64,000 bases of DNA from a virus: the IMG/VR virus record IMGVR_UViG_3300022902_000004, positions 254,268 to 318,267 of that record. One strand, written 5' to 3'. Positions 35,358-59,479 of this stretch are shown one piece after another. The notes under the pieces were generated by a model. The model searched no databases. It was not told the origin of the DNA and worked only from the letters and a program-made list of their open reading frames with translations. Position 1 is the first letter of the stretch, and each line of letters starts with the position of its first letter. The translations under genes and the position numbers were made by a program.

Positions 35358-36095
35358 TTACACAGAGGAACCAAGAAACCTGAGCACACCCGATTTTATT
35401 GATGCAACGGATGAATCGAACGCCGCCTCAGACGCGTCGATGTAGAAAAAGTTCTCTTTGAACAGTTTTTCGTATGCCTCTCTGTTCCTTTCAACAGCTT
35501 TCCAAGACCGAATGACGTCCTCTTCATCCACACCTCGGCCACCTTGGGCAGCTCGGTTCACGTTCCTGGCCAACGACACTTCCAATGGAACATCGACATA
35601 AATCATGCCGACTTCATATCCAGCATTAGCAAACTCTTTGAACTGTTTTGAAATCTCTCTGTAGTTGCCACCGGTACCGTCAATCAAAACATTATCGCCG
35701 GTGCCCATGAGTGACTTTTTTAGGTGCTTGGCTGCATTGCGTGCCCGGGAGAACAGCGTCATATTCTGACTGAAGATGGCCCTGAGTCGACGGTATTCTG
35801 GCTCTGCATCGGACATTGCCTGTTCGTCACCAACTCCCTGGGCTTCCAAGAATGTTGCCTTGGCCAATTTGTATTCTTCAAGTAAGTCCTTTCTATCAAG
35901 CGGGATACCTGCCTTCTTGAGCGCCGCCTCATAATCGTCGTCCGGGTTGACTACAGTTAGCTGGCTTCCAATACCAAGTTTTCTAATTGCTGTTGATTTT
36001 CCAGATGCAGGTCCGCCGGCCATGAAAATAGCAGAAGGTTTGGCTTGGAGTGCCTCCCGGAGAACCCGTCGAATATATTGTCGTAGCATTTTCAT
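35358..36095 (-). CDS. P-loop nucleoside/polynucleotide kinase-like protein with CTS-like leader
   Basis: AIFMAGGPASGKSTAIRKLG Walker A; N-terminal MKMLRQYIRRVLRE. Confidence 0.65.
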   Translation of the reverse strand: MKMLRQYIRRVLREALQAKPSAIFMAGGPASGKSTAIRKLGIGSQLTVVNPDDDYEAALKKAGIPLDRKDLLEEYKLAKATFLEAQGVGDEQAMSDAEPEYRRLRAIFSQNMTLFSRARNAAKHLKKSLMGTGDNVLIDGTGGNYREISKQFKEFANAGYEVGMIYVDVPLEVSLARNVNRAAQGGRGVDEEDVIRSWKAVERNREAYEKLFKENFFYIDASEAAFDSSVASIKSGVLRFLGSSV

Positions 36096-36748
36096 AGGTC
36101 CACGTTTGCGTTTGTAATAAGCTTCCCAGCGACGCTCAGGGCACCAATCGTTGGGGTACCACTGGCATAGTATGCCTTGGACAATGAGCTGTTCAGGTAT
36201 TTCTGTTGCTCAGCTTTGCGCTTCTTTTCATCGTTGTGGAAAAGGCCCCACCAATTTGTTTGCATGTCGGCGTCGTCATCTGGTGTTTCTGTTTCGTGGT
36301 GGTCATAATCAGGCCGAAAGTCGAACTGTTTCTTTTCGATGTCATCACGGTTGTTCATGTAAAAGTTCCACACGTTGGTGGCATCCGGTGAGACAGAGGC
36401 TCTATCAGGTGTGAGCCCGAAGCCTTTCATACCAAGACGCTCCATGACAACATCATACAGCATCGGTCCCCAACTATGAGCTGCTTTGTGGCCAGTATTG
36501 ACCCGAGCAAGAATGACAGAATATGCTTTCATTTTCTTGGCGACTTCATCACCTGGTAGCAACTTTGCCGCCACAAACCCATTGATGTCGTCGCCTCGAT
36601 TGAATCGCTTGCCATCTTTGTCACAGTAAAATGCCCGGATGAAATCGCTGGCTTCAACAATCTTGACGTGCACTTCATCCGGCAGGTCATTCGGTCCTTT
36701 GGCAGATTCAGTCAGAACTTGCCTGACATAATTTTGTAATACGTTCAT
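36092..36748 (-). CDS. paralog family F protein (SWGPMLYDVVME motif) with CTS-like leader
   Basis: Trimmed to MNVLQNYVRQVLTE. Shares motif with 56845..57369 and 58853..59479. Confidence 0.55.
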   Translation of the reverse strand: MNVLQNYVRQVLTESAKGPNDLPDEVHVKIVEASDFIRAFYCDKDGKRFNRGDDINGFVAAKLLPGDEVAKKMKAYSVILARVNTGHKAAHSWGPMLYDVVMERLGMKGFGLTPDRASVSPDATNVWNFYMNNRDDIEKKQFDFRPDYDHHETETPDDDADMQTNWWGLFHNDEKKRKAEQQKYLNSSLSKAYYASGTPTIGALSVAGKLITNANVDL

Positions 36749-38499
36749 CACACATTTCCCATCATAATCTTCAGATGTTTCGCGCCTGACTTGCCAATTT
36801 TCCGGTAGTACCAACCATCTGAATCCGGCCCGAAGTTTCTGTTTGGGTGTGGTCCCAGCCATTCGATTGGTTTCTTGAGGATGGCACGAACCTTGGCTTC
36901 ATCTGTCACAGCGTTCACGCCTGCTTTGAATGCAAGCCATGCAGGTGCACCAGACGTCTCGACGAAGGTACCTTTCCTCTTCAGTAAGTCAAACATATGT
37001 TGAGATGTTGGGTTCTTGCCATCTGCACCATCATGCCCGCGACCACCGATCTTGAGGCGACCGTCTTTGTACTTGCCAAAAATGACACCGTCGGGTTGCG
37101 GATCTTCATCCACATCAACGGTATCGAAGAACTCGTAACCACCTGGTAAATCCTCAGGCTTTTTGATTTTGAGGTTGCCACCGATTGGGGCATATGCGGT
37201 TGAAATCAGGTCGAGAACCTCATCATCGATATCAACTTCTTTCCTGTGTACTGCGAGTTCTTCAGCAGGTACATCTTCCCATTTATTTTTAGGTACGCCC
37301 ATATCTGCGAACGTCTTTTCTAGCAGAATGTTCATACGAAGAAACGATTCAGTCAATGACTTGAACACGTCCACCTCAGCAGAGTGCATCGCCTGTCCAA
37401 TCTGGGGACCCTTCAATCCTTTTGCCATTAGTTCCTGTGGTCGGAGTGTTGGGGACCTCTGGACGAACTCCAGGAACCCTTGAACGAACTTCTCGGGCAT
37501 ACCGACTGCCAACGCAAACTCTTCCAGCTTTTCCGGAGGAACCCTAAGTCGCTTGAATTCTTTCTTCAATTTTGGTGAAGTGGACGCAACAATTCCAGGC
37601 AGATTCAATAGGAACTGAACCATCCCGGCCTCGTCGCTTGTGTACTTCATCTTCCGTAGGACCTTGGCAACTGCGCCCGGGTCGTTCCCCCAAAGAAGAA
37701 GGGCAACCTGAACATCGAAATGTTTCGAAGCAGGTGCTGCGTCGACTTCAAGTCCTGGGAAAATCTGTGGCCACAAACCTAGGTCACCAATGAGCCCCAG
37801 AAGGTGCTGCCCGTCGATTGCTGACTTGACTGCCTTAGCAAACTCGTCATGAATACGTTCTGGCGACACGCCTGATAGGTCGTTGTCTCGCTTGATTGCT
37901 GAGGCAGTTGTTTCATCCAAGTCGGAGCCTAGACGAGCAGCGAACCTGACAGCCCGCAGAATACGAAGCTTGTCCTCCCTAAATCGAAGGGCAGGATCAC
38001 CGACAGCGCGGATGACTCCATTCTTTACGTCCTCAATACCGCCAACGTAGTCGACCACCTCACCGGTTGTCAAGTCGTAGAAGAGAGCATTGATTGTAAG
38101 GTCACGACGGTTTACATCGTCCTCGATTGTAGTGAACTCAACAGAGTCAGGACGTCGGCCTTCACCAATGTCATTTCTGAACGTTGCAATTTCGTATTCC
38201 TCACCACCGACAGTTCGAACCCGAACAACGCCAAACGCCTTGCCAGTTAGATCGATGCGATGTGATGGGTCCTTTGAAACAATGTCGATGACACGTTGTG
38301 GTTCGGCACCTGTTGCAAGGTCGTAGTCCTTCGGGATTTTCCCGAGGAGTGTATCCCTGACGGCACCACCAACAACGTATAGCTCCTCACCAGCCTCCAT
38401 GAAGGCATCCAGGATCCCGCCCAAATCGGCAGGAGTCTGCAGGTGCATTTTCATTTTGATTGGGGCACGGTCCAGCATTTCAAGAATGTTTTGTTGCAT
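36748..38499 (-). CDS. cca: tRNA nucleotidyltransferase (CCA-adding enzyme / polyA polymerase family), 583 aa
   Basis: YVVGGAVRDTLLGKIPKDYDLAT head-domain signature. Long C-terminal extension. Confidence 0.8.
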   Translation of the reverse strand: MQQNILEMLDRAPIKMKMHLQTPADLGGILDAFMEAGEELYVVGGAVRDTLLGKIPKDYDLATGAEPQRVIDIVSKDPSHRIDLTGKAFGVVRVRTVGGEEYEIATFRNDIGEGRRPDSVEFTTIEDDVNRRDLTINALFYDLTTGEVVDYVGGIEDVKNGVIRAVGDPALRFREDKLRILRAVRFAARLGSDLDETTASAIKRDNDLSGVSPERIHDEFAKAVKSAIDGQHLLGLIGDLGLWPQIFPGLEVDAAPASKHFDVQVALLLWGNDPGAVAKVLRKMKYTSDEAGMVQFLLNLPGIVASTSPKLKKEFKRLRVPPEKLEEFALAVGMPEKFVQGFLEFVQRSPTLRPQELMAKGLKGPQIGQAMHSAEVDVFKSLTESFLRMNILLEKTFADMGVPKNKWEDVPAEELAVHRKEVDIDDEVLDLISTAYAPIGGNLKIKKPEDLPGGYEFFDTVDVDEDPQPDGVIFGKYKDGRLKIGGRGHDGADGKNPTSQHMFDLLKRKGTFVETSGAPAWLAFKAGVNAVTDEAKVRAILKKPIEWLGPHPNRNFGPDSDGWYYRKIGKSGAKHLKIMMGNV

Positions 38500-38556
38500 G
38501 TTCGTAAGCCTGTTCCTTGTCGCCTAACTAAATATCTGCAACCTGTATAAACCGTC

Positions 38557-38850
38557 TTACCCAGCATTCACCAGCACATATGATGATGTGTTGAAAAGCT
38601 GGGTTTCCCCGTGTATAAGGATTTTGTGATGCCATTGGCTTGGGTAATCACAATCGCATATTCTTACATGCTCATTTTGCAATCTATCGAGCTCTTCCCG
38701 ATCTGCATTAGAATAACATCGAGGAGCCGCACTAACTTGAAACGTTTTTATGAAAAGCCCAATGTCACCTTCGAAGTCCCAACCTATAACCCGAACCAAT
38801 GTGCCGGACGGTCTGTTAGGATCTTCATTGATGCTCTCGAATTTGCTCAC
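38557..38850 (-). CDS. hypothetical protein (97 aa)
   Basis: ORF in chain. Confidence 0.5.
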   Translation of the reverse strand: MSKFESINEDPNRPSGTLVRVIGWDFEGDIGLFIKTFQVSAAPRCYSNADREELDRLQNEHVRICDCDYPSQWHHKILIHGETQLFNTSSYVLVNAG

Positions 38851-39146
38851 TTCTTACCTTTCTTGAGCGCCTTCTTTGCCTTCTTGGATGCCTTGAGCAC
38901 AGCGGAATTGGAGTTTGTTGGCTCCTTCGTCTTCTCAGCTCCCGGGACCTGACTCAGGCGAATCTTCACTGAGAACTTATCGATTGCCCGCTTTACAACA
39001 CGGACCTCGACATTCGTGACATCAGACTTCTTCCACTCGTTGACAAGCGCCTTACGCTTCGAGTTGGCCTTCTTGAATGTGTTGACCGTGCACACGACCT
39101 TCCATGGTTTGACGGTATTTTTCACTGTACGGTTCTGCTCGTTCAT
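38847..39146 (-). CDS. small basic (Lys-rich) putative DNA/RNA-binding protein
   Basis: KKAKKALKKGKK tail; ATGA overlap. Confidence 0.5.
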   Translation of the reverse strand: MNEQNRTVKNTVKPWKVVCTVNTFKKANSKRKALVNEWKKSDVTNVEVRVVKRAIDKFSVKIRLSQVPGAEKTKEPTNSNSAVLKASKKAKKALKKGKK

Positions 39147-39568
39147 GCTTCATCCTTTTTTAGGCGCTCAAGCCATTTTTTATCACACGCATCACACCTA
39201 ATACTCATATAGTTGTGATTTCGCATTTTCCCTTTCTCACCACACTCTTCACAGATTCGATAACTGTGAACCTCGGCCGCGTCAATCACGCCTCGAATAT
39301 AGTTGTCGCCACCTTCGTAGTAAAAACGTAGGCCACCAAACTTCTCTTTGATTTGGACCGCAACAAGTTGCTTGGTCTTCCCGATAACCTCTTCCACATG
39401 CTTGTTTTTCGCCATGCGATGTTGGATTATCCGAAGCGTGTCATCAAGCAGATCAATCCAACCATCACCGACAGCAATTCCCCATAACATGGGTGAACCA
39501 GGCTTCTCACACCGGGATAGAATAACAGGATATTTTTTGCATAATTCATCTTGTTTCTCTTTGTTCAT
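39143..39568 (-). CDS. hypothetical protein with C-terminal zinc ribbon
   Basis: CEECGEKG ... CDACDKK. Confidence 0.55.
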   Translation of the reverse strand: MNKEKQDELCKKYPVILSRCEKPGSPMLWGIAVGDGWIDLLDDTLRIIQHRMAKNKHVEEVIGKTKQLVAVQIKEKFGGLRFYYEGGDNYIRGVIDAAEVHSYRICEECGEKGKMRNHNYMSIRCDACDKKWLERLKKDEA

Positions 39569-39601
39569 AGTAGATCCTATTCGATTTCAACCAGGTGTTC
39601 A

Positions 39602-40384
39602 CTACACCTTCTTCTTCTTTTTGAGGCGTGGTTTGACCAAGTGGTCAGGGTGCACCGGAAGAGGGGCAGCACCGCAAAGAATGTCGATGGCCAACTTACC
39701 GTTCTTGGCGACGTAGCAAGACTTGACGACCAAAGCCGGGATGTCTTTCTTCGTCATGACCAAGTCGCCGGCGGGCCAGCGCAAGCGAGCATCAGCAAGC
39801 TTGGCACGTTTGCCTTTGAACATGCCACCAACTTTCTCGGTTGCCCACTTGTTCCAAGGAGCAGTGCCTTCGATAGCCGCTGCGCATTTCTTGAGGGCTT
39901 TGTCGATTCCTTGGCAGGTGTAAAGGTAGTCAGGCGAGTAAGCCCGACCCATGACAACGCCAACCTCGACCAGCGCTTGCAGTTCATCATCCGGAACCCA
40001 TGCCCCGTTTTTCTTGACGCCCTCTGCATTCTCGAGCAGGCCATTCATCCACGAGGTTTGTTTCTCGCTAAGTGCCCAGCCTCGACCAAGCTTGTAAGCA
40101 AAGTCAAGCATGACATCGGCATGCTCCTTCTCGACACCCGGAGTTGCCGCCGCCTCTTTGAGTTTGGCGACCATCTCTTTGTTTTGTGGCTCCGGTGGGT
40201 TGGTAAGCACGACGGAGTCAAACCACTCACGCTGCTTCTTGGTCATGCCCTTGCCACGACCCATACGGAAAATCATATCGCTTACAAACCGGACGCTCCG
40301 GTCCTGTTTGTGGTTTTGCTCGGTCCAGCGGGCGACCATTGCATTGCCAAGTTCGATTCGTTTCACTGCAGACATTCGAGCCAT
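39602..40384 (-). CDS. hypothetical protein (260 aa)
   Basis: Long ORF, promoter cassette upstream at 40400-40450. Confidence 0.6.
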   Translation of the reverse strand: MARMSAVKRIELGNAMVARWTEQNHKQDRSVRFVSDMIFRMGRGKGMTKKQREWFDSVVLTNPPEPQNKEMVAKLKEAAATPGVEKEHADVMLDFAYKLGRGWALSEKQTSWMNGLLENAEGVKKNGAWVPDDELQALVEVGVVMGRAYSPDYLYTCQGIDKALKKCAAAIEGTAPWNKWATEKVGGMFKGKRAKLADARLRWPAGDLVMTKKDIPALVVKSCYVAKNGKLAIDILCGAAPLPVHPDHLVKPRLKKKKKV

Positions 40385-40442
40385 GGTAACCCCCTCCGGA
40401 ACACCCCGGGAACATATATATTATACCACGTTTTCCTTTGTC

Positions 40443-40643
40443 TTACACGAAATCTTCGAAAGATCGGGGAATACCCCGCTTGGACGTTTTCTTGATCATT
40501 GAAGGCCGGTCAGGCCGGGATCGACAATGAGGGCATTCCCCATCAGGGCGTTTCTTTTCTTTCCATTCGTCACATGGATCACAGTAATACGCATCGAATA
40601 TTTCATTCAAGTGAACCTGATTGTTGCAAACCTCACACCTCAC
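40443..40643 (-). CDS. small zinc-ribbon protein
   Basis: CEVCNN ... CDPCDEW ... CPHC. Confidence 0.5.
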   Translation of the reverse strand: MRCEVCNNQVHLNEIFDAYYCDPCDEWKEKKRPDGECPHCRSRPDRPSMIKKTSKRGIPRSFEDFV

Positions 40644-40876
40644 TTATCGAATCGCCTATCGACAACTCGAACTTCCATAGGCTTCTCAGCCCAGCCGGCG
40701 TTTGTGTATCGGTTTGACATCATGATGGTACGGTCATGCTTCCCTGGCACCATGGCGATGACTTCATCCTCCTTGAGGTTCCCGTTTTTCAATGCATCCC
40801 ACCAATCAGGTCCGGTGCACTCGGCGACCGCAACAAGGTTGACACCGTATGCTCGATAGAAAACAGTGTAGACCAT
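40640..40876 (-). CDS. hypothetical protein (78 aa)
   Basis: ATGA overlap. Confidence 0.45.
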   Translation of the reverse strand: MVYTVFYRAYGVNLVAVAECTGPDWWDALKNGNLKEDEVIAMVPGKHDRTIMMSNRYTNAGWAEKPMEVRVVDRRFDK

Positions 40877-42467: not shown

Positions 42468-43148
42468 TTCGCAAAGATATTTATATGTATAAAGAGTTAT
42501 TACGTTTATCGTATTATTAACAAGCTGAATGGGCGATTTTATATCGGCGTTAGAACCTGCAAAGGAAATATTCATACAGATTCATACATGGGATCAGGTT
42601 CTGCGATTGGATTAGCTATCAAAAAATATGGAAAGGAAAACTTTGCTAAGGTTATAATGTCGCAACATGAAACCCGCAATGAAGCATTGCTTGCTGAGGC
42701 TTTGTATGTTCCGCAAGAGTTGGTCGACGATTCAATATGTTACAATCTTTGCCAAGGTGGTCTCGGCGGTGAAGGATATTCCCCTTCTGTTGAAACACGA
42801 AAGAAACTTAGCAACGCATTGAAAGGTCACCTTGTCTCTATTGAAACACGAAAGAAAATCGCCAAATCATTGACAGGTGGAACTAGATCACTTGAATCTC
42901 GACAAAAAATGCGCGAACGAGCCTTACAAAGAGAACCCATATCAGATGCTACTCGTCAAAAAATGAGTGCAGCAAAGAAAAAGCAAGCAAGAACGCCGGC
43001 TGCACGCAAAAGAGTAAGTTTGTCTACCATTGGAAGACTTTGGTGGAACAATGGCACCCAAAATAAGTTTTGTAAAGATTGCCCGGGTGATGAATATGTC
43101 CGCGGCCGAATCAAATGGGCCAAATCACTTGATAAGAAGCCTATCTAA
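42468..43148 (+). CDS. GIY-YIG homing endonuclease with NUMOD3 repeats; no canonical ATG at the expected start
   Basis: In-frame KSYYVYRIINKLNGRFYIGV (GIY-YIG) precedes the first ATG. Repeats ETRKKLSNALKG, ETRKKIAKSLTG, ESRQKMRERA. AT-rich island. Confidence 0.6.
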   Translation, partial: FAKIFICIKSYYVYRIINKLNGRFYIGVRTCKGNIHTDSYMGSGSAIGLAIKKYGKENFAKVIMSQHETRNEALLAEALYVPQELVDDSICYNLCQGGLGGEGYSPSVETRKKLSNALKGHLVSIETRKKIAKSLTGGTRSLESRQKMRERALQREPISDATRQKMSAAKKKQARTPAARKRVSLSTIGRLWWNNGTQNKFCKDCPGDEYVRGRIKWAKSLDKKPI

Positions 43149-45334: not shown

Positions 45335-45350
45335 ATCATCCTCTCTTCGT

Positions 45351-45440
45351 TGGTGTACCCGCCCGGAGTCGAACCGGGGTGTTGAACGCTTCAATTTCAT
45401 GTCATTCACAAGGTTATCCGGTTCTTCTCAACCGGCAAGT
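45351..45440 (-). tRNA. tRNA-like element (canonical T-arm and ACCA 3' end; 5' half not foldable by eye) - possibly degenerate
   Basis: Minus strand ...CCCGGTTCGACTCCGGGCGGGTACACCA-3'. No matching acceptor 5' strand found. Followed by ~350 nt without ORFs. Confidence 0.3.
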
Positions 45441-45787
45441 CTGCCTATAAAACACCCGTCCCGTTCTAGACACTGGGACCCACCTGGCGAGCCAGGGAAC
45501 CATTTAGCAACCATTTTTATCTCAATGCGGTAAAACATCCAGCCAATTTTGGGTATCAAGGTAGTTGGCCACCTCGCAATTATGCAGCTTGTGCGTAAGA
45601 GTACTCCGAGTTATCGTTAGCAATTATCATTTCAGCGTTTTTACGAAGCCGCGCTGCCCTTCGCCTTGCACATTCAATATTATTCGCCCAATCGAAACCA
45701 GTTCGGGCACATTGTTTGTCAAATTCTCCTATGTTCAGCGACGTTTCATCGCCCTCAATATAAGTATAATCATTTTGCGAAAGATGT

Positions 45788-47303: not shown

Positions 47304-48320
47304 TTATATCTCCAAAGGTGATGCCGACCAAATGATCTCATTCAATGACTGACTGCATGATTGGCGCAAAAACTCCCCAACGATAAACTTGAAAGTGTGA
47401 AATTCCTTAATCACAGTAATGAGCTGCCCGTCCTTGTAAAGATTGAAGACACCGACCTCCTCGAAGACATCGCTTTTGTTCATTATCAACGTGTTGACAC
47501 CATTTACGTTTACTGCCTTGATAAGGTTGTCGACGTCCAGCCAATTTGTCTGTCGTGGACGTCCCGTAGTAGCTCCAAACTCGTTGCCAACCTTTTGCAG
47601 TTCATACAACGCAGGCTCTTTACCCTGAAACGCCTTGGCACCGACGTATGTTTCGTATGGCTTGGCCACACCGTACACCTTCTTGATTGCCTGCGGTGGG
47701 ATGCCCGCCATGACAGCTCCGGCGGTGGTGCAGGTTGCAGACGTGACGTATGGATAGTCTCCCCAGTCGACATCGAGATAGAAGCCTTGGGCTCCCTCCA
47801 TTAGGACATTGACATCGGCCTCATTTGTATGAAGTTCCTTGTATTCGTCAATCAAGTAAAGCCCGAGACGCCAGTCTTCCTCAGCACATGTGCCAACACG
47901 ACTGACCTTATCACGATACGCAGGACCATTCCCTGTCTTGGTCGTACCGATTCGGGATTCACCTGCTTCCTCTTCGACATGTTCGGGTGTCACCAAGTGT
48001 GCCTTTTCAGATACACGGAGAAGATCAACCATCTCAATTCCAGCAGCCGCAAGCTCAGATATTTCATTCATCAGCTTTTTGGTGTCGACAACACAGCCTC
48101 GACCAATAATCGATTTCAGCCCGCGGAACACACCGGCTGGCACCAGGTGGGTGACAAATTTCTTCCCTTCGTGGTAGATTGTGTGGCCTGCGTTGGAGCC
48201 TCCACTGAATCGCATGACATGGGTATAGTTTCCCTTCTTCGCCAGCGAATGAACAACCTTTCCTTTGCCGCAGTCGCCACTTTGGCAGTCTACAACAACA
48301 TCTGCTGATAGTTTACTCAT
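47304..48320 (-). CDS. purA: adenylosuccinate synthetase family protein, short archaeal-type (PurA or PurZ)
   Basis: QSGDCGKGKVV and GGSNAGHT P-loop signatures; TKTGNGPAY; YLDVDWGDYPYVTS; GTTGRPRQTNWLD. 338 aa. Confidence 0.85.
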   Translation of the reverse strand: MSKLSADVVVDCQSGDCGKGKVVHSLAKKGNYTHVMRFSGGSNAGHTIYHEGKKFVTHLVPAGVFRGLKSIIGRGCVVDTKKLMNEISELAAAGIEMVDLLRVSEKAHLVTPEHVEEEAGESRIGTTKTGNGPAYRDKVSRVGTCAEEDWRLGLYLIDEYKELHTNEADVNVLMEGAQGFYLDVDWGDYPYVTSATCTTAGAVMAGIPPQAIKKVYGVAKPYETYVGAKAFQGKEPALYELQKVGNEFGATTGRPRQTNWLDVDNLIKAVNVNGVNTLIMNKSDVFEEVGVFNLYKDGQLITVIKEFHTFKFIVGEFLRQSCSQSLNEIIWSASPLEI

Positions 48321-51131: not shown

Positions 51132-51162
51132 GTATTTATTCTATGAAAAAGGGTTGTGGTGT

Positions 51163-51556: not shown

Positions 51557-51557
51557 G

Positions 51558-52967
51558 TTAACCCCACGTGTTCTTGCGGACTTCGTCCAGCGTGTAATCC
51601 TGTGTCACCTCACCATCCTCAAACACCGTCTCGAGCAGGTCAGCATCTGATGCCGAAGACTCCGGAACGGTCATGATTTTATTTCCGTCTCTACCTGTCA
51701 TTGCAACCAAGGCATGTCGGCCCGGCTTCGAGCGCTTACCTGGAGCATCAATCGGATCCTTGAACACGTCTCGGCCTTCACCATTTACGCTAATCCAAGA
51801 ACACTTGAATGCAAACTTCTGGGTGTCACGGTTCATCTTCTGGAGCAAGGCTCCTCCTGACCCGAATGCGATATTATCGGCACTCCAACCAGCAGCCATG
51901 ATTGCATCAAGAATCTGGGAAATCACAAAGCGGTCAACTCCATCCCCTTGGATGATACGCACGTGAGGATCTAAGACCTTGTAACCTTTCTTGTTGGTGG
52001 TAAATCCAAAGGCCTCCCCAAGACGCTCCAGACACTCCAGGACAACACTCTGTGGGTCTCCTGAGTCCGGCCGTACGACCAGCGTTCCATCTCGAGCCAG
52101 GATTTCTGCTTTCAGTTCCTGACCCCACAATTCTGAGCACGCTTTGTAAATGTCGTAGCTATCTGAAACGCATGCAACCAGTCCGGTTGGGTATTGCTCC
52201 AGCATGTTTCGAAAGGCATTGACCTCGCCTTCCTTTCCCCACGATGTAATTGTCGAGTGCTCACTGGCTGGAATGCTGAATCCTGCCATTTGAGTGTTGT
52301 AGTGGTTCCTGGCCAATACCAAGGCTGCCACCGTATCTGTTCCCATGAAGTTGACAAGGTGACCGAAGCCACCGATGCCTGCAGTTTCAACAGACGACAC
52401 ACCACGGAAACCGAAGTCGTGCAGTTTGAAGTAGATGCCTGCTGGTGTTCCGGATTTCTCCAGTGCCGCAGCAATAATCAACCGGCTGGCCCGACTAATC
52501 GTTGCCACGGTGCACGGGTACCAAACCTGAACCAGCAAGGTCTCGAGGTAATTGGTCAACCACCAACACTTCGGGTCTGTATTCTCAATCGTCAACATCA
52601 CGTTGTGGGTCGGAACAACTGTTCCTTCCCTGACCGCTTTGATTCTGACGGGCAACCGCCCATCATGCTCATTGAGAATGTGCTCCCAGCCTTCTCGGTT
52701 GAAACACGTATCGTTGCCGAAATGCAGATGGAAGAATTCCTCTGCTTCGTCGATGCGTTCCTGTGTTACGACCTGTCCCTCGAGGTATTCCTGCAAGAAG
52801 TACTGCAGTCCCACGAAGACAACATCGTCGAATTCACCGCCGCGACTCTCAAAGTAGGAGTAAACGGTCTCAGTTCCCTCAGGATATTGCTTGGAATGTG
52901 ATACCTTGTATGAATCTGTCATCAAGATAATGTTTTTTGGATCGATGTTCTTGTTGTAGTAGCTCAT
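51558..52967 (-). CDS. nadV: nicotinamide phosphoribosyltransferase (NAMPT)
   Basis: 469 aa with NAPRTase-family motifs (GTDTVA..., FGFRGVSS). AAGAGGTGAAAGC RBS. Confidence 0.85.
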   Translation of the reverse strand: MSYYNKNIDPKNIILMTDSYKVSHSKQYPEGTETVYSYFESRGGEFDDVVFVGLQYFLQEYLEGQVVTQERIDEAEEFFHLHFGNDTCFNREGWEHILNEHDGRLPVRIKAVREGTVVPTHNVMLTIENTDPKCWWLTNYLETLLVQVWYPCTVATISRASRLIIAAALEKSGTPAGIYFKLHDFGFRGVSSVETAGIGGFGHLVNFMGTDTVAALVLARNHYNTQMAGFSIPASEHSTITSWGKEGEVNAFRNMLEQYPTGLVACVSDSYDIYKACSELWGQELKAEILARDGTLVVRPDSGDPQSVVLECLERLGEAFGFTTNKKGYKVLDPHVRIIQGDGVDRFVISQILDAIMAAGWSADNIAFGSGGALLQKMNRDTQKFAFKCSWISVNGEGRDVFKDPIDAPGKRSKPGRHALVAMTGRDGNKIMTVPESSASDADLLETVFEDGEVTQDYTLDEVRKNTWG

Positions 52968-53968
52968 GCTTTCACCTCTTTCTTCGATGTGATCTTCACT
53001 TTCTTCGGGGACAGTCTTGTACGTTCCTTTGGCATGTTTTTTTCAATGTGCTCCACTAGTGCATTGCAAAGCGGAACGTGCTCATCGCAAACGAAATTTG
53101 AAATCGTTGACGGCAAAACATCCAGTCCACACTTAAGCCTTTCGATTTTGACCCATTCGACTTCGTACAAATCATCTGTCGCCTCAATGGGTCCCCACAA
53201 GTACACACCGGTGAAAAACACAGTCGTGATTTTATCCTGACGTCTTCGATAGCGCCAGTCGTCGATAACGAAAGAGCCAATGTATTTGAGTGGCTTGCTC
53301 ACCTCAATGTTCCCACCGGTTTCCTCGTTGAATTCTCGGAGAGCTCCTTGCTCATGGGTTTCTCCGGGCTGCAAAAAGCCGCCAGGGAACCGTAGCTTGG
53401 CACCTTCATACTTACGACCCATCAAGACTTCATTCGTCTTGTAGTTGATGACAGCCATGTCGGTCGTGCCATACGCAGTCGGGTAACGATTGTATGAACC
53501 GTAAATGACACCGCGGCGGAAGTCGATTGAACCGTTGGCACGTAGTGCTGCTTCGGCTCGAACCTGTGTTCCGCTGATGTAAATCTTCTGCTCCAACTCA
53601 ACGGTTGGGAAGACACCATGGTATCGCAACATGAAGCTGTCTCGGCTACCGTAAAGGGTAACATCTCCAACAGGACACACTTCTCGAATCTTCTTGTCTA
53701 AGAGGGCAGACCAGGGCTTGTCGAATTCTTGGTCTGAAATTGGTAGAACAATAATCTCAGGGTACTTTTCCTGAATCATCTTTTTTCGTAGATCGTAATC
53801 CAGTGGATTCCTTTTGTCTCCCAAACCGGGACAAATCCCGAGGAACACGATCACTTTGTTGTGGGTCTCAGCCACTTCATCCAGAACACCAACGTGTCCT
53901 GCATGCAACTCCGGAATCTGAAATCTCCCGACCACGACTCCAATCTCACGCTTTTTATTATCACTCAT
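52964..53968 (-). CDS. natV: bifunctional NMN adenylyltransferase / Nudix ADP-ribose pyrophosphatase
   Basis: N-terminal GRFQIPELHAGH nucleotidyltransferase motif; C-terminal Nudix box GGFLQPGETHEQGALREFNEETG. ATGA overlap with nadV. Confidence 0.85.
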   Translation of the reverse strand: MSDNKKREIGVVVGRFQIPELHAGHVGVLDEVAETHNKVIVFLGICPGLGDKRNPLDYDLRKKMIQEKYPEIIVLPISDQEFDKPWSALLDKKIREVCPVGDVTLYGSRDSFMLRYHGVFPTVELEQKIYISGTQVRAEAALRANGSIDFRRGVIYGSYNRYPTAYGTTDMAVINYKTNEVLMGRKYEGAKLRFPGGFLQPGETHEQGALREFNEETGGNIEVSKPLKYIGSFVIDDWRYRRRQDKITTVFFTGVYLWGPIEATDDLYEVEWVKIERLKCGLDVLPSTISNFVCDEHVPLCNALVEHIEKNMPKERTRLSPKKVKITSKKEVKA

Positions 53969-54112
53969 TTATACACTCTTCCTTGCTAGGACCACAATCA
54001 ACCTAAGCCTCCCGGCTGTGATTATGATGTTTCGCTGTTTGCCTCCCGGCATTTACGAGAACCCCTTGTCCTCATGATCTAATTATACCCGCCACCATGG
54101 CGATGTACAAAA

Positions 54113-55147
54113 CTATGCTCCGTGCGGTTTATTCTCCTGCTGAGTTGCAGATGAAACCTTCACAAACTCGTGGCGTTCATACAACTCCGGTACTGTTCGT
54201 GCTCCTGAGTATGACAGGCCACTTCGAATCCGCGCCGCGAAGGGTTTCATTACACTAGCAACAGATCCCTTTGGATCAATCATCGCTGTGGTACCTTCAA
54301 TGTATTGTGGGTCCTTGTCACCAGGCTTCTTACGGCGATGCTGGGCAACATTAGATGCCATACCTTCATACGCGATCTTGCCATTCCATGTTCCACCGTT
54401 TGGGCACTCATTCGTTCCTGCGAGAACAGATCCAAGCATCACAAAGCTTGCACCGGCGGCGAGGGCCTTTACAGCGTCACCACTGTTTCGAATGCCACCG
54501 TCTGCAATAATGGGTGCCTCGCTGCGGGATATTTTGACACGACAAACAGACTCAAGCGTCGGCAACCCGTGACCGGTTACAACCCGAGTGGTGCAAACAC
54601 TTCCTCCACCGATGCCAACACGAACCATATCAGCACCTGCTTCATAAAGAAACTCAGCACCAGCTGCTGTGGCAACGTTGCCAGCAATGATCAGAATTTT
54701 ATCACCAAACTCATCCCGTAATCGGTGAATTGCGTCTTTAACATTCTTATGATGTCCATGGGCTACATCGATTAGGAAAATCTTTGTCCCACATAATTCG
54801 TATGCTGCTTTGGCACGTACAAAAAAGTCCCCTGTCGCGCCAATTGCAACTCCGTATAGCGGAGCAGTCACTTTGCGAATGATGTCTAGCTGTTCCTCAA
54901 CGGTATTGTAACGATGGATAATACCCATCCCACCGCAATCACCCAAGGCATTGCACATCTCGTCTTCACAAATCGTTGTCATCGGCGCCGCAATGACGGG
55001 AAGATACAAATAACCAAACCCTCGAGGCAGGCCAGCACCAATCACAATGTCATCCCTCGAGGGGATCGATGATTTGCGTGGTACCAGAAGTACATCATCA
55101 AAACAAATTGTGTCATACGCAAATGCGTTATGTGCATATCGTGTCAT
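54113..55147 (-). CDS. GMP reductase / IMP dehydrogenase family protein lacking CBS domains (GuaC-like)
   Basis: FDDVLLVP and GIGGGSVCTTR catalytic loop. ~344 aa, trimmed to MTRYAHNAF with a GGAG RBS. Confidence 0.75.
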   Translation of the reverse strand: MTRYAHNAFAYDTICFDDVLLVPRKSSIPSRDDIVIGAGLPRGFGYLYLPVIAAPMTTICEDEMCNALGDCGGMGIIHRYNTVEEQLDIIRKVTAPLYGVAIGATGDFFVRAKAAYELCGTKIFLIDVAHGHHKNVKDAIHRLRDEFGDKILIIAGNVATAAGAEFLYEAGADMVRVGIGGGSVCTTRVVTGHGLPTLESVCRVKISRSEAPIIADGGIRNSGDAVKALAAGASFVMLGSVLAGTNECPNGGTWNGKIAYEGMASNVAQHRRKKPGDKDPQYIEGTTAMIDPKGSVASVMKPFAARIRSGLSYSGARTVPELYERHEFVKVSSATQQENKPHGA

Positions 55148-55148
55148 A

Positions 55149-56054
55149 TTACTTATCTCCCCATGATTTTGTTCGCAAGTGAATCGAGAACAGCTTTGCA
55201 GCTCGAGCACCAATTGCTTTCCTTACCTCTCGGGTTGGCTCAAACTCGCCTTCACCTTCGATCATGACATCTTCGATCATTGCAGGAATGATTTTCTGCA
55301 TGTCAGCGTAACCCACATCTTGCGGGAACTTGTCAAGCACATGCTCCAGGCGCATATCGGTAACCCACTCTTCAGCAATTGCTTGGGCGCCATTCAGCTT
55401 CTTCCTTGCATCGGGATCCAAGATGGTGTCACCTTTCGATGCCCGCTCAGAAAACTCAGCAGTCTTGTGTTTTGCCATCAGTCGCTTACCGCTCGGCATT
55501 GCAACCTCTTCGATTGGCCGGAGCACGACACCTTCAGATACTTTATCCTCGATGATACCTCGGCGTTTGGCAACCCGAGACGGTTTATCTCGTTCAATCG
55601 TGACTGCCGCAAGGTTGGCTGGGATCCGTTCATATGGAACGAACTCAAGCCCAAACTTAAGGACAAACTCTTCAGCCCGAGGAACAGGCAACCATTCATT
55701 GCCGAGTTTGACTTCAAATGCGATGAAGAGTAGTTTTGGTCCATATGTGTGCGACATTTTCTGTTGAGCGCCGCCATATGCCTCACCGAAAATGGTTACA
55801 TCAGCATGCCCAAGCTCGTGAAAGATGTCAATGAGTCCTTGCTGATAAAACAAGTCGGTGAACTCTTGATGCTTCGACCCGCCAGAAAAGAATCGCAATA
55901 CGGCATTGTTCTTATTCTTCGGTGTCTTGTTGGTATAACGGATATGTGCCGATGTGCCATGAACTTTCTCCATGGCATAACACTCCTTGAAAAGCAGGAT
56001 GTTTTGGTCTTTGTATAGATTTGAGATCTTGGCGTATCCAATAATGTCCCCCAC
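55149..56054 (-). CDS. rnl2: RNA ligase, Rnl2 family (probable GTG start)
   Basis: Motif I EKVHGTS (T4 Rnl2 KIHGTN). ~300 aa. Confidence 0.75.
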   Translation of the reverse strand: MGDIIGYAKISNLYKDQNILLFKECYAMEKVHGTSAHIRYTNKTPKNKNNAVLRFFSGGSKHQEFTDLFYQQGLIDIFHELGHADVTIFGEAYGGAQQKMSHTYGPKLLFIAFEVKLGNEWLPVPRAEEFVLKFGLEFVPYERIPANLAAVTIERDKPSRVAKRRGIIEDKVSEGVVLRPIEEVAMPSGKRLMAKHKTAEFSERASKGDTILDPDARKKLNGAQAIAEEWVTDMRLEHVLDKFPQDVGYADMQKIIPAMIEDVMIEGEGEFEPTREVRKAIGARAAKLFSIHLRTKSWGDK

Positions 56055-56069
56055 GGGACCTGTGCCCCT

Positions 56070-56112
56070 TATTTATAACTCAATTATATCATAAAAATTG
56101 TCAGTTTACACG
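56070..56112 (-). promoter_or_regulatory. early-promoter cassette (TGATATAAT variant) driving rnl2-guaC-natV-nadV
   Basis: Minus strand GTGTAAAC ... TGATATAAT, ~25 nt upstream of the start. Confidence 0.45.
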
Positions 56113-56157
56113 AACAACTGGATATTTAGTAACGTATACATAACCCATGGAGAATAT

Positions 56158-56823
56158 ATGAAACGCCATTACATAATTTACACATACAAAGATCCTCGAA
56201 ACGACAACATATTCTATGTTGGCCAAAGTATCAACGGAATGAAAAGAGCCCAAGCCTTTAGCCAACACAACGTTTGGTGCAGGAGAGTTATTGCAAAAAT
56301 TGAAGCATCGGGAATGCATGTTGAAATAGAGATCACTGATGAACTTGAAAAGACACGCGACGTCCGAAATGAATTGAACGTCGCTGAAAAGGCTCGCTGT
56401 GCTGCTATTCAAAATGAAGGGCATCATCTAACAAACCTGCTTTTTGGTGAAAACATGAATAGACCGCATCTGTATGAGACAGAAAGAAAAGCTCATGGAA
56501 ACAAAGGAAAAGTTCGAACCGCCGAACATAGAAAGAACATGAGTAAGGCCCAAAAAGGACGTAAGCATTCACCAGAAACAAAAATGAAAACGTCTCAATC
56601 TCTCACAGGTAGAAAAAAGTCTGAGGCTCACAAAAAAGCAATGCGTGATAATTGGTATGAAAAGCGGGGCCCAGAAGTTTTCGAGAAGATTGCCGCATCA
56701 AAACGAGGTAAACCTAGAAGTGAAGAAACAAAGGCGAAAATTTCAGCATCTGGTAAACAAGGTGCACTGAAAGGATGGGAAACCCGAAGACGCAACGCTG
56801 AAGCTAAAACCATACCAGGATGA
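56158..56823 (+). CDS. GIY-YIG homing endonuclease (Seg-like) with NUMOD3 repeats
   Basis: MKRHYIIYTYKD ... FYVGQS. Repeats AEHRKNMSKAQKG, PETKMKTSQSLTG, EETKAKISASGKQ. GGAGAATAT RBS. Opposite strand to neighbours. Confidence 0.75.
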   Translation: MKRHYIIYTYKDPRNDNIFYVGQSINGMKRAQAFSQHNVWCRRVIAKIEASGMHVEIEITDELEKTRDVRNELNVAEKARCAAIQNEGHHLTNLLFGENMNRPHLYETERKAHGNKGKVRTAEHRKNMSKAQKGRKHSPETKMKTSQSLTGRKKSEAHKKAMRDNWYEKRGPEVFEKIAASKRGKPRSEETKAKISASGKQGALKGWETRRRNAEAKTIPG

Positions 56824-56844
56824 ATCTTACACGAAGTTCACACA

Positions 56845-57369
56845 TTACTTTTCTAATAGTTTCTTCATTGATTTGAGTTTTTTCAATGTTGTTGGAGGTT
56901 TTGTCCAGCACATGCCAAGAGCGGGAGTGTCTGAGAATTCGCCGACCTCATCAATATTCGTTCCAGTCACATCCGGGCGGTAATCACGGTAGTGGTTCCA
57001 TACATTTTGGGCTTCATCTGAAACTGGGTCGCGGTCGGCCATGAGCCCATCGCCTTCCTTTGTGGCATACTCCATGGCGACATCGTATAGTAACGGTCCC
57101 CATGATTTTGATGCCCTGACGAAGTTTATCATCCAGACGTTCCCGGCGATATCATGCATCGTTTCTACTGATGCCGGTGGGTCAATGTACATCTCGCCGA
57201 GGGGTGTTCCGCCATGATCGATGGGCTTCTTTGATTTGTCGCTGTAGTAAATGTGTACACCGTACTCATCCATTGCAGACGAGTCAATGGTGATATACAC
57301 ATCGTCTAGGTCATTGATACCGACGGCACGCTCGAGGAGTATTTCAATGTATTCACGGAGGAGCTTCAT
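56845..57369 (-). CDS. paralog family F protein (SWGPLLYDVAME) with CTS-like leader MKLLREYIEILLE
   Basis: Motif shared with 36092..36748 and 58853..59479. Confidence 0.55.
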   Translation of the reverse strand: MKLLREYIEILLERAVGINDLDDVYITIDSSAMDEYGVHIYYSDKSKKPIDHGGTPLGEMYIDPPASVETMHDIAGNVWMINFVRASKSWGPLLYDVAMEYATKEGDGLMADRDPVSDEAQNVWNHYRDYRPDVTGTNIDEVGEFSDTPALGMCWTKPPTTLKKLKSMKKLLEK

Positions 57370-58196
57370 ACCAATTGAGCCCTCAGTTTTGTCTTTGGGT
57401 ATTTGCCCGCCAGTGCGGCGACGGCTTTTATGTTCTTCGCTGAGTCATCTATAAAGTAAATGTCGTCATGGCCGTTGTTGATTTTTTCTTCAATCCAGTC
57501 TGCTTTGACTTGCGGGTCTGAATTGCCTAGCGTCACCAATTCGATGCTGCTTGTATCTATACCAATGTCTTCTAGGAAATCAAGTATTCCTATCCTTGCG
57601 GCATCACCTCGAGCAGTCAAAATCACCACATGCCTGCCTTGGCTTCCGGCTGCCAAAACCCTGCGAAGGATTTTCATGTGCCCCTTGATTGCCTGCGGGT
57701 TTTTGAGGGCACCACCAAATTGGCTATAGTCGAATTCGTCACCTTTGACAGGTTTATAGATCGACCACTCGGCTGGCGTCTGTTCTATCGTCTCACCGGA
57801 TGCCTTGTTCAAGATGATCATTGAATCGGTCATCGCCAGCGTATCATCAAAATCAAAAACCCTTAGCTTTCTTTCGGTAAGCATTTTTTGCTCTACTAGA
57901 TTGCCGAACCGAGAAATATCTTTCGCCGAAACCCAATAGTGTCGTTCGCCATCAGGAAATTCGTCGTCTAAGTTTGCATATTGCTCAGGTATTTCAATTG
58001 CCACAAGCTCATTTCCATAATCATTCGTTGCTTCGCCATTAGGACTTGTTGAAAAATAAACCTCTGTTCCAAAACCCGTTTTTATCTTCGAGGTAAAACC
58101 ATTTCGCTGTATCGCGGCGGCGTTGTTCGTTCGATGGTACAGCAATAGCGTTTTTTCTGCAAGTAGCATCCCAATATATTCGCGGAGGAGTTTCAT
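57366..58196 (-). CDS. two-domain protein: unknown N-terminal domain plus HAD-like phosphatase (DxDxT), CTS-like leader MKLLREYIGMLLAE
   Basis: VFDFDDTLAM motif I; ATGA overlap. Confidence 0.6.
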   Translation of the reverse strand: MKLLREYIGMLLAEKTLLLYHRTNNAAAIQRNGFTSKIKTGFGTEVYFSTSPNGEATNDYGNELVAIEIPEQYANLDDEFPDGERHYWVSAKDISRFGNLVEQKMLTERKLRVFDFDDTLAMTDSMIILNKASGETIEQTPAEWSIYKPVKGDEFDYSQFGGALKNPQAIKGHMKILRRVLAAGSQGRHVVILTARGDAARIGILDFLEDIGIDTSSIELVTLGNSDPQVKADWIEEKINNGHDDIYFIDDSAKNIKAVAALAGKYPKTKLRAQLV

Positions 58197-58197
58197 G

Positions 58198-58851
58198 TTA
58201 CTTTATCACGACGCCCAGGTCTTTCAGATCCTTGATTGCCCGCTGCATGTTCTTTGCATCGTTCATACCGAAGTCCATTAGCTCTTGGCCGATTTCCTTG
58301 CGGGTGATTTCGTCGTAGTCAGACAGGACATCAAGAATCTCTTCCCATGCCTCGTCCTTATCCTCAACCTCAATCTTGCCGGCCGCATGACGACCTGCCC
58401 TTGACAGCGCGTCATTGACATTCTTCTCAGCGAATGCTCTGGCGTCAACTTCATGTGGAGATGCTCGGTATCCATACGTGCTACCATTCCATCTCCATTG
58501 TGCTGTGATTGACCGGTACAGCGTCTGTCGATCTATATCACCGCCTTTCTCTTCACCATGCTTTACATGCTGGTTCCAATGCTGGATTTCGTGAAGTATT
58601 GTGTTCACCTGCTGTTTGAACATGTTCTTGGTCTTAGCTTTGTTGACGGTGAGTCGAGCGTAATGAGGGCTATATCGTCCCCATATACGACTAGGAAGGC
58701 TCCCGTATTGCCACTTCAATTTACCGAGGATTGAGCTCTCTTTTGCATACGTTGAAATAAGAAAGTTGACGACCTTTGGGGAGAGCCACTCTTCGCCAAA
58801 TGCTGCGTCCTCGGTCAGGATCCTTTTTATGAATGTGATTAGGCTGCTCAT
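58198..58851 (-). CDS. SprT-like / HExxH zinc metallopeptidase-like protein
   Basis: ILHEIQHWNQH motif. Confidence 0.5.
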   Translation of the reverse strand: MSSLITFIKRILTEDAAFGEEWLSPKVVNFLISTYAKESSILGKLKWQYGSLPSRIWGRYSPHYARLTVNKAKTKNMFKQQVNTILHEIQHWNQHVKHGEEKGGDIDRQTLYRSITAQWRWNGSTYGYRASPHEVDARAFAEKNVNDALSRAGRHAAGKIEVEDKDEAWEEILDVLSDYDEITRKEIGQELMDFGMNDAKNMQRAIKDLKDLGVVIK

Positions 58852-58852
58852 A

Positions 58853-59479
58853 TTATCTCCAATCGTCCAGCTTTCCTGCTTGACGAAGGAAATCTAATGT
58901 CGGTGTTGCCCCGAGTCTTGTTCTGTACATTTTGCTAAGTTCTGAGTCGACCCAGTCGCTACTGGCGCGGCGAGCTGAGTGTTGCAGTGCATTGTCATCA
59001 TCTTGTGGTGTTAGCTGGTTTTGCATATTGTCCAGTTGAACATGCTCTACATCATCACGCGATTCTAGGTAATATTCCCAAATTCCTTGGGCTGAATAGG
59101 ACACTGATTTGCGATCTGGCATGATGCCGGAACCGTTTTCAGCCGCGACCTCCATGGCGATGTCATATAGCAAAGGTCCCCAACCATCCGGAGCACCGGC
59201 GAATGTAACCTCATATGCATCAAGTGCTTTGCCATAATCTGATGGCATCGGGCGGGCAGCACTTACCTCACCAAGCGGCCCGTCTTTGATATCGGCATCT
59301 TCGCTGATAAGATAAACTCGGAAGCCTCCTAAACCAAAACGGGTCGGTTGAATCTGAATTGATAAATGTGCCGGTAGGTCTTGAGCGGTTTTCATGCCCT
59401 CAATTAGCAGTCTACGACCACCGGTTGATTGCTGGAAACATTCAACCAAGTATTTTGTGCCTTCATATGTACTTCTCAT
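58853..59479 (-). CDS. paralog family F protein (GWGPLLYDIAME)
   Basis: Shared ~60-aa core with the other family F members. Confidence 0.55.
   Translation of the reverse strand: MRSTYEGTKYLVECFQQSTGGRRLLIEGMKTAQDLPAHLSIQIQPTRFGLGGFRVYLISEDADIKDGPLGEVSAARPMPSDYGKALDAYEVTFAGAPDGWGPLLYDIAMEVAAENGSGIMPDRKSVSYSAQGIWEYYLESRDDVEHVQLDNMQNQLTPQDDDNALQHSARRASSDWVDSELSKMYRTRLGATPTLDFLRQAGKLDDWR

Follow-up and report, generated by a model that had tools for sequence, protein, structure and literature searches.

In bacteriophage T4, the internal proteins of the head share a capsid-targeting sequence (CTS), which corresponds to their first ten residues, MKTYQEFIAE (PMC8442874). The T4 protease gp21 cleaves after the motif L/I-X-E, classically at a Glu-Ala bond; within the CTS, residues 4 and 7 serve targeting and residues 8 and 10 serve processing, and the CTS is thought to allow T4-like phages to carry varied head cargo (PMC9026906). 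gp21 has an N-terminal cleavage-logo sequence of its own and may be targeted in the same way as the internal proteins (PMC9026906). The internal proteins of the T-even phages form a diverse defence (anti-restriction) set with only the CTS in common (PMC3012670). A literature search on capsid targeting sequences turned up work on T4, phiKZ, SPN3US and P1 only. Here we describe Family F, a group of phage proteins with a short N-terminal leader, which is represented by three paralogs in a 64,000-nucleotide (nt) stretch of viral DNA (positions 254,268 to 318,267 of IMG/VR record IMGVR_UViG_3300022902_000004; the whole stretch is hereafter called the window). No paper on Family F or on its leader was found, and the string LLREYIR was absent in a full-text search. 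We propose that Family F proteins, which very probably have a divergent GNAT fold, may be packaged into the phage head by means of the leader. The genes, conserved cores and leaders of the three paralogs, designated F1, F2 and F3, are as follows.

36092..36748, minus strand: F1, Family F protein of 218 amino acids (aa), predicted GNAT-fold domain with a type-A leader (translation; family hidden Markov model (HMM), E = 6e-56)
36347..36475, minus strand: conserved core of F1, aa 92-134, with the motif A-like SWGPMLYDVVME and the motif B-like GLTPDRASVSPDATNVWNFYMNNR
36707..36748, minus strand: leader of F1, MNVLQNYVRQVLTE followed by SAKGP, with an L-x-E end; matches exactly the segment 1-14 that has a predicted local distance difference test (pLDDT) score < 50
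56845..57369, minus strand: F2, Family F protein of 174 aa, C-terminally reduced domain (translation; family HMM, E = 3e-46)
56977..57105, minus strand: conserved core of F2, aa 89-131
57331..57369, minus strand: leader of F2, MKLLREYIEILLE followed by RAVG
58853..59479, minus strand: F3, Family F protein of 208 aa
59057..59185, minus strand: conserved core of F3, aa 99-141, GWGPLLYDIAME ... GIMPDRKSVSYSAQGIWEYYLESR, assigned to GNAT beta4-alpha3-beta5-alpha4
59399..59479, minus strand: extended, degenerate leader of F3, MRSTYEGTKYLVE followed by CFQQSTGGRRLLIE and then GMKTAQDLP, with two L-x-E sites (residues 1-21, pLDDT < 50)

The original prediction, made from the window sequence alone, of three paralogous genes with a conserved core was borne out at these positions. 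The family HMM detected the three paralogs at E = 5e-73, 6e-56 and 3e-46 and matched nothing else among the 901 six-frame open reading frames (ORFs) of the window, indicating that the window contains exactly three paralogs and that their similarity is not due to chance. Motif 1, [SG]WGP[LM]LYD[VI][AV]ME, occupies aa 92-103 of F1, 89-100 of F2 and 99-110 of F3, and motif 2, G[LI]xxDR..VS..A..[VI]W..Y, occupies aa 111-134, 108-131 and 118-141, respectively. Both motifs are as first described apart from small deviations, namely GWGP instead of SWGP in motif 1 of F3 and GLTPDR, AT and FY in motif 2 of F1. A shared core of about 60 aa had been described; the similarity reaches beyond it, the pairwise identity of 31-35% among F1, F2 and F3 spanning their full length. 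The ATG of F1 shares 1 nt with the stop codon that ends the gene upstream (583 aa); a longer F1 ORF (256 aa, to 36862) is not the version of public gene callers. For all three genes, identical proteins were predicted by independent gene callers on 13-21 metagenomic contigs, including contigs from Tara Oceans, the longest being 318,267 bp. F2-like proteins of 174 aa (90%-identity cluster) were present on other contigs, and a 174-aa counterpart occurred in one of the related loci (L056; loci are numbered with the prefix L below).

Relatives of Family F were numerous in metagenomes. A word-indexed search returned 32 metagenomic relatives, and a full HMMER profile scan returned 2751 representatives of 50%-identity clusters at E <= 1e-3, 541 of them at E <= 1e-30. 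At least 56 loci in IMG/VR contained Family F, many on contigs of 170-293 kb; the contigs of L005, L006, L009 and L019 measure 250-290 kb. The family was often multicopy, with up to 9 copies per locus (L006, within about 13 kb). A search of 185,579 species-representative genomes gave only seven matches to Family F, each in a metagenome-assembled genome, and the taxa are unrelated (Peribacter, WOR-3, Poseidoniales, Bdellovibrionota, Halobacteriovorax and Acidimicrobiaceae). The scattered taxonomy of the seven matches fits mis-binned phage contigs, with the reservation that the WOR-3 match is located in a 2.8-Mb record labelled as a chromosome. Megablast of the region 56000-60000 of the window against GenBank phages gave no match, and an exact 45-mer taken from the window did not occur in IMG/VR. 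Judged from these sequence searches, Family F appears to be essentially phage-specific and confined to uncultured phages.

A helix-forming leader of about 14 residues, MKLLREYIRxLLTE followed by AAKGPxDLP, was found on nearly all single-domain members of the family. A CTS-like leader had been claimed for two of the window paralogs, and it was clear on F1 and F2; F3 carries a degenerate, longer version with sites at LVE13 and LIE27, and of 127 family members, 122 have a glutamate at the position of E27. When leader patterns were counted in the window and 58 loci, the type-A leader stood at the N-terminus of 98 genes, compared with approximately 0.6 expected from its internal frequency, and 61 of these genes were not Family F. 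A second leader type, MKLLxENWRxYLxE, was present on 36 genes in other loci. A third, MNKRINRLLEGIRRELGEA, was present on four small neighbouring genes of L048 (8866-11252), beside sheath and capsid genes, and the Family F copy of that locus starts with the related sequence MTLGKLLAELRGELEEA. Within approximately 13 kb, L006 (1-13200) carried 12 leader-bearing genes, along with its 9 Family F copies. The non-redundant leader-bearing proteins outside Family F numbered 69; most had no Pfam match, and the others matched HAD/DUF2608, tRNA-ligase CPD, PGA_cap, PS decarboxylase, Zeta/AAA_33, RNase T, protein kinase, NT5C and canonical GNAT domains. Synonymous sites in the leader codons varied freely, indicating that selection acts on the leader peptide, and a DNA or RNA element at this position was rejected on the same ground.

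The end of the leader is its most conserved part, and it has the form of a gp21 cleavage site. At the positions flanking the candidate site, P3 was L or I in 124 of the 127 family members, P1 was E in 122 and P1' was A, G or S in 108. The motif [LI]xE occurred within residues 5-30 of 72 of 78 members, compared with 9.8% of other sequence windows in the same proteins. In the leader consensus, the second of two candidate sites, an L-x-E, lies at residue 14. Leaders of different families resembled one another more within a locus (mean score, 11.9) than between loci (5.7; p ~1e-6). The mean score for Family F leaders between loci was 15.9, so that the idea of a leader that strictly tracks the genome and not the family was only partly true, the Family F leaders being conserved between loci too.

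T4-type head genes were found close to Family F in several relatives, with the T4 head proteins of NC_000866 used for comparison. In L015, homologs of gp21 (E = 4e-21) and gp23 (E = 5e-32) lie 1-8 kb upstream of the Family F gene. In L029 and L031, a scaffold-like gene and a gp23 homolog are followed directly by Family F, which has a type-B leader, and 2 kb further on by another gene with a leader. Homologs of gp20 were present in L035 and L036, a gp18 homolog in L008 (type-A leaders), and gp23 together with a sheath protein in L048. The capsid protein of L031 is a distant T4-type major capsid protein, whose nearest relatives are in Flavobacterium phage 'immuto' and a 484-kb uncultured phage. 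A search of IMG/VR with the L015 protease yielded 36 loci (L061-L096) with 34 gp21 homologs, 27 of which were full-length with the N-terminus M(S/G)(Q/K)KLLREYYELC(D/E)GGVCQDLLTE(E/D)EK or a near variant; two had LLTEY. In the marine T4-like lineage, the gp21 homologs read M(S/G)QKLLREYYELC(D/E)GGVCQDLLTEEEK, with a conserved CxGGxC between the parts that correspond to MKLLREY and LLTE, and those of L090 (6140-6739) and L091 begin with MKLLREYYEL. These marine homologs are genuine T4-type prohead proteases, as they matched 2580 phage records ('prohead core protein serine protease'). The gp21 of cyanophage S-RIM2 starts with MKLIAEE. Of all the evidence that the leader may address proteins to the prohead core, this sharing of the leader by gp21, itself a component of that core, is the strongest.

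L015 also contains six pentapeptide-repeat-like paralogs, M(T/L)REEIIAAVRAGKSL...ANLRGANL..., among its head and Family F genes (46-1052, 4027-4590, 8627-9738 and 10474-11127). The window contains 7 copies of an octamer that resembles a T4 late promoter, TATAAATA, compared with 0.76 expected (14708, 27665, 42478, 46976, 49217, 56070 and 61148); the copy at 56070-56077 (minus strand) lies just upstream of an RNA ligase gene. T4-type late promoters before the Family F genes were rejected as a candidate feature, since no copy of the octamer lies directly upstream of them. When the window proteins were compared with 69 kb of T4, the matches were limited to GIY-YIG endonucleases of the Seg type and, weakly, to RnlB, a result that says nothing on whether the window's phage is T4-like.

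The original prediction had found no obvious known fold for Family F. This stood for Pfam, PHROGs and NCBIfam, which gave nothing significant for F1-F3, and did not stand at the level of the fold, where weak similarities to GNATs appeared. The AlphaFold2 model of F3 (34-sequence alignment) had a pLDDT of 86 and a predicted template modelling score (pTM) of 0.82, with only residues 1-21 below 50. In the model of F1 (m5a38287659d9), residues 1-14 formed a helix with pLDDT < 50, the domain was confident from about residue 21, and pLDDT reached 92 by the block of residues 21-30. Foldseek gave weak matches to MYST histone acetyltransferases in the PDB (E ~0.1) and to phage 'NAT_SF domain' proteins in BFVD (E ~0.01). 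When the Family F profile was compared with PDB sequences, the sole match was the GNAT 2i79 (E = 0.82 with 34 sequences and 0.47 with 127 sequences), which thus remained non-significant after the profile was enlarged. In this alignment, GWGPLLYDIAME fell onto the GNAT motif-A loop and helix, GWGPLLYDiAmE was placed on nGLGSLLLEEAIEWA, and G-e-i-x-i corresponded to beta3, followed by beta4. A relative in L022 had sub-threshold matches to Pfam Acetyltransf_1 and Acetyltransf_7 (E ~5e-3) inside its Family F domain. A homolog search with the Acetyltransf_1 domain of L033, intended for a canonical GNAT profile, returned none.

The mixed alpha/beta core of GNATs, beta4-alpha3-beta5-alpha4, is present in Family F. 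Motif 1, GWGPLLYD(I/V)AME, probably corresponds to beta4-alpha3, with the pyrophosphate loop and helix of motif A, and motif 2, G(L/I)xxDRxxVSxxAxxVWxYY, to beta5-alpha4 (motif B). The motif A-like loop, (G/S/K)-(W/Y/F)-G-P, opens alpha3; its second G is at least 90% conserved, whereas A or a variable residue stands in place of Q/R. The same level of conservation is reached by Y105, D106 and E110 on alpha3, and by D122 and R123 after beta5. We take the S..A...W..Y of alpha4 to be the counterpart of N..A..(L/F)Y in GNAT motif B. A C-terminal extension of about 60 residues is also conserved (QLD..N.LTP.D.DN..Q ... SPLSKMY ... GKL), most of which is missing from F2. Taken together, these features make it very probable that Family F is a highly divergent branch of the GNAT fold. 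The homology to a known domain that would have spoken against the family's novelty was thus found at the fold level only, and the family is otherwise undescribed.

Enzyme genes adjoin the Family F genes of the window, and several of them carry the leader.

35358..36095, minus strand: P-loop kinase (Zeta_toxin/AAA_33), 245 aa, immediately downstream of F1, leader MKMLRQYIRRVLRE followed by A (Pfam)
36748..38499, minus strand: CCA-type tRNA nucleotidyltransferase fusion, 583 aa (Pfam PolyA_pol, 9e-35; NCBIfam CCA/PcnB)
57366..58196, minus strand: HAD-like protein (DUF2608), 276 aa, between F3 and F2, leader MKLLREYIGMLLAE followed by K (Pfam)
58198..58851, minus strand: HEIQH (zincin-like) protein, 217 aa, leader MSSLITFIKRILTE followed by D (motif; NCBIfam SprT, E = 0.006, 16 bits against a cutoff of 113)

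Such an enzyme neighbour had been predicted for each paralog, and Pfam agreed for the CCA enzyme, the Zeta_toxin/AAA_33 kinase and the HAD/DUF2608 protein; the SprT-like assignment rested on the HEIQH motif and the 16-bit, sub-threshold NCBIfam match only. Leader-bearing HAD homologs also adjoin Family F in L056, L041, L013, L020 and L044. A homing-endonuclease-like gene on the plus strand (56158-56823), with a faint NUMOD3 match and a GIY-YIG-like start recognized by eye, lies between the RNA ligase gene and F2, in the block of leader genes.

The 583-aa protein consists of a nucleotidyltransferase (approximately aa 1-375), an internal degenerate leader and a domain of about 200 aa. Near aa 376-395, its junction reads SLTESFLRMNILLE followed by KTFADMG, and the corresponding sequence of the stand-alone L007 protein is MNLLREYIRRLLAE followed by KTFADFG. 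Blastp aligned aa 381-583 with the protein encoded at 12857-13468 of L007 (50% identity) and proteins of L041, L005, L003 and L028; the domain of about 200 aa is thus a separate leader-bearing gene in other phages. Further fusions involve Family F itself. A 1370-aa protein of L033 (8762-12874) contains three tandem Family F domains, then canonical Pfam GNAT domains and an HNH_3 match below the cutoff. A 923-aa protein of L005 combines DUF192, a CCA-type nucleotidyltransferase, Family F and PAP2, and the 592-aa protein P0078 joins a CCA enzyme to Family F. The end of the leader is kept at the junctions, which read ...LGELRRYIRALLTE followed by AARQPEDLP in P0078, ...VRLLTE followed by AAKGPQDLP in L005 and ...GALTE followed by AAKGPQALP in L033. 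These fusions fit polyproteins that would be cut at L-x-E in the prohead, in which case the leaderless CCA enzyme would be carried into the head too.

On the basis of the shared leader, its conserved end and the linkage to T4-type head genes, we propose that Family F proteins are head-packaged, protease-processed and injected GNAT-like effectors, a proposal that we consider evenly balanced as a whole; packaging into the head, taken by itself, is moderately supported and slightly more probable. Each protein would be made as a pro-protein, the amphipathic leader of about 14 residues would dock on the prohead scaffolding core, and a gp21-type prohead protease would cut after the glutamate of L/I-x-E. 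The mature acidic GNAT-like domain would remain in the DNA-filled head, be injected with the genome and act immediately on a target in the host, with cofactor-dependent acyl transfer as the most plausible mode of action. This target would probably be variable, and its variability would account for the existence of tandem copies that diverge. A bolder version, which we hold only tentatively, is that uncultured marine T4-like and jumbo phages have a large arsenal of injected enzymes bearing one propeptide of about 14 residues, with Family F as the most abundant cargo and with polyproteins cut at internal L-x-E sites. In that version, and with the same reserve, Family F would be a new class of GNAT-like enzymes that act on the host within seconds of the start of infection, and whose target could be tRNA or aminoacyl-tRNA in view of the recurrent fusions to CCA enzymes.

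Several observations weigh against packaged GNAT-like effectors. A resemblance that speaks for them, that of the leader start MKLLREYIRE to the T4 CTS, with M1, K2, E6, I8 and E10 shared and with hydrophobic or aromatic residues at L4 and Y7, covers ten residues, too few for a statistic. The window contains no head genes, so that a gp21-type protease was seen in relatives only, and GenBank phages yielded no tblastn match to F3, to the family consensus or to the member from L031, the family being found in no cultured phage. Family F proteins are acidic, with a median isoelectric point of 5.0, in contrast to the basic T4 proteins IPII and IPIII. As for the fold, no statistically significant GNAT profile match to F1-F3 was obtained in Pfam, NCBIfam or PHROG, and neither the canonical Q/R of motif A nor the usual tyrosine of alpha4 is conserved. 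The N-terminal arm is non-canonical in both models, with the leader helix or helices, four consecutive strands and alpha3, and with no beta1-alpha1-alpha2; the N-terminal arm is the most variable part of GNATs. Finally, the fusions fit equally well with a leader that is a docking helix and works internally too.

The last point leads to the explanation that the leader is an amphipathic helix for docking or oligomerisation in the cytoplasm, where it would assemble a complex for RNA or tRNA-end repair or nucleotide metabolism, comprising Family F, the CCA enzyme, the kinase, phosphatases and the RNA ligase. Besides the persistence of the leader inside fusion proteins and the acidity of Family F, which is atypical of proteins embedded in DNA, the link to CCA enzymes speaks for such a complex, since it recurs in three contexts (the 1-nt overlap in the window and the in-frame fusions of P0078 and L005), and the leader-bearing neighbours are rich in enzymes of RNA ends and nucleotides (tRNA-ligase CPD, kinase, HAD/NT5C and RNase T), with RNA ligase genes nearby. 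However, a CCA neighbour is absent from the majority of Family F copies, a docking helix does not need a near-invariant L-x-E followed by A, G or S, the related marine prohead protease bears the same MKLLREY...LLTE N-terminus, and some Family F genes lie within the head module, directly after gp23. We consider a cytoplasmic complex unlikely, and the accompanying suggestion that Family F would act in it as an acyltransferase on tRNA or aminoacyl-tRNA is unlikely to the same degree. Still less probable is that Family F, packaged or not, is a non-catalytic GNAT scaffold serving as a stoichiometric inhibitor or decoy of variable host defence, comparable to T4 IPI* acting against GmrSD. The missing motif-A Q/R and general-acid tyrosine of alpha4 and the unusual N-terminal arm would suit this role, and the tandem diverging copies, up to 9 per locus, resemble the anti-restriction internal proteins of T-even phages (PMC3012670). 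Yet conservation reaches at least 90% at about 20 polar or glycine positions although family identity is only 25-45%; the conserved set includes Y105, D106, E110, G101, P102, G118, D122, R123, S127, A130, W134, Y137, R141, D143, Q148 and D150. These residues cluster on the cofactor elements beta4-alpha3-beta5-alpha4, as is typical of an enzyme or ligand site and not of the surface of a fast-evolving binder. The notion that Family F reflects chance, low complexity or non-genes is refuted by HMM E-values of 1e-46 to 1e-73 with exactly three matches in the window, by identical proteins on 13-21 independent metagenomic contigs, by thousands of homologs and by confident structure predictions.

Other features of the window were recorded. 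A transfer-messenger RNA gene lies at 45351-45710 (minus strand), with the tag peptide ANDNSEYSYAQAA according to ARAGORN and a match to Rfam RF00023 over the full model length (92 bits, E = 1.8e-34). The ORF at 62172-63734 (minus strand) runs off the window end and corresponds to the C-terminal portion of a protein of 870 aa in L105 and L106, which has Pfam matches to MVP_shoulder and, weakly, Vault_3 (major vault protein-like) and is unusual in a phage. An auxiliary metabolism block (51558-55213 and 47304-48320, minus strand) encodes NadV (NAMPT), NMNAT/Nudix, IMPDH/GMP-reductase-like and Rnl2-type RNA ligase proteins, together with an ORF that we presume to be PurA-like, a name given solely by its GDCGKGK motif. 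The nearest NadV relatives come from jumbo phages, namely RsoM2USA, Synechococcus phages B3 and B23 and an uncultured phage of 642 kb. A SegE/SegD-like (GIY-YIG) homing-endonuclease-like gene is located on the opposite strand (42588-43148, plus strand), and HNH endonuclease genes are located at 28900-30907 (minus strand). Tandem arrays are also formed by a multicopy family of small proteins (about 80-160 aa) that start with MTPxQ(A/S)xx(V/M)T(R/K)(L/V/I)M....

23731-25960 and 31818-32601, minus strand; also 1881-2246, 5771-6073, 14711-15049 and 17801-18055: MTPxQ small-protein family

GNAT folds and a CTS processed by gp21, the components of the proposed system, are each of a known kind; the apparent novelty lies in their combination, the size of the family, the leader arrays spanning many families and the polyprotein fusions. 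If the leader is a capsid-targeting sequence, the internal-protein strategy of T4 would be no coliphage curiosity, but widespread and much expanded in large environmental phages. Injected effectors could then be read directly from metagenomes by a simple sequence tag, and the leader would become another candidate for a short tag by which phage heads are loaded with foreign proteins, a use which the T4 CTS already serves. Family F, with more than 2700 clusters, would be a large GNAT-like branch that lies outside every family database. Even without packaging, a peptide common to many unrelated enzymes and to a prohead protease calls for explanation.

Among described proteins, the GNAT superfamily (Pfam clan CL0257, including AcrVA5, TacT/AtaT and the Elp3 KAT domain) appears to share with Family F a G-x-G loop at the N-terminus of alpha3, aligned with the GLGS of 2i79. 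Family F differs from GNATs in that it is detected by no Pfam GNAT model, lacks the Q/R of motif A, has a proline after G-x-G, invariant Y, D and E on alpha3 and four strands before alpha3, and carries both the C-terminal extension of about 60 residues (QLD...LTPxDxDNxxQ...SPLSKMY...GKL) and a cleavable-looking N-terminal leader. For the GNAT toxins TacT, AtaT and ItaT, the only link was a fold similarity whose Z did not differ from that of the other GNATs (ranks 25 and 36), and no antitoxin-like partner was evident among the neighbours of Family F. The MuF polymorphic toxins of temperate phages likewise have variable enzymatic cargo that is addressed to the head by a conserved module. They differ in that this module is a large MuF domain with the cargo C-terminal to it in one protein, whereas the leader described here is a 14-residue peptide on arrays of separate genes.

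The ejection (E) or inner-body proteins of the giant phages phiKZ, 201phi2-1 and SPN3US likewise belong to large genomes and include packaged paralogs, and gp21-like proteases remove propeptides from many of them by cleavage behind the Glu of a three-residue motif (PMC9026906). Their motif is of the type S/A-X-E, in contrast to L/I-X-E in the leader, no shared short N-terminal leader has been described for these proteins, and we found no sequence or fold relation of Family F to them. Parallels are also found in IPI, IPII, IPIII and Alt of T4, which, like the Family F set, have a short N-terminal leader on unrelated proteins that ends in L/I-x-E and a small residue. In both cases the cargo is diverse and fast-evolving, relatives with Family F encode homologs of gp20, gp21 and gp23, and the leader and the T4 CTS appear similar at the key positions 4, 7, 8 and 10. 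The Family F leader is longer than that of T4 (about 14 residues compared with 10) and often has two candidate sites, I-x-E10 and L-x-E14, and its putative cargo consists of acidic enzymes instead of basic DNA-associated proteins. The Family F arrays are far larger than those of T4, reaching 12 leader-bearing genes within 13 kb, and include polyprotein-like fusions with internal leaders; for an injected enzyme as such, T4 Alt, according to its annotation, provides the precedent.

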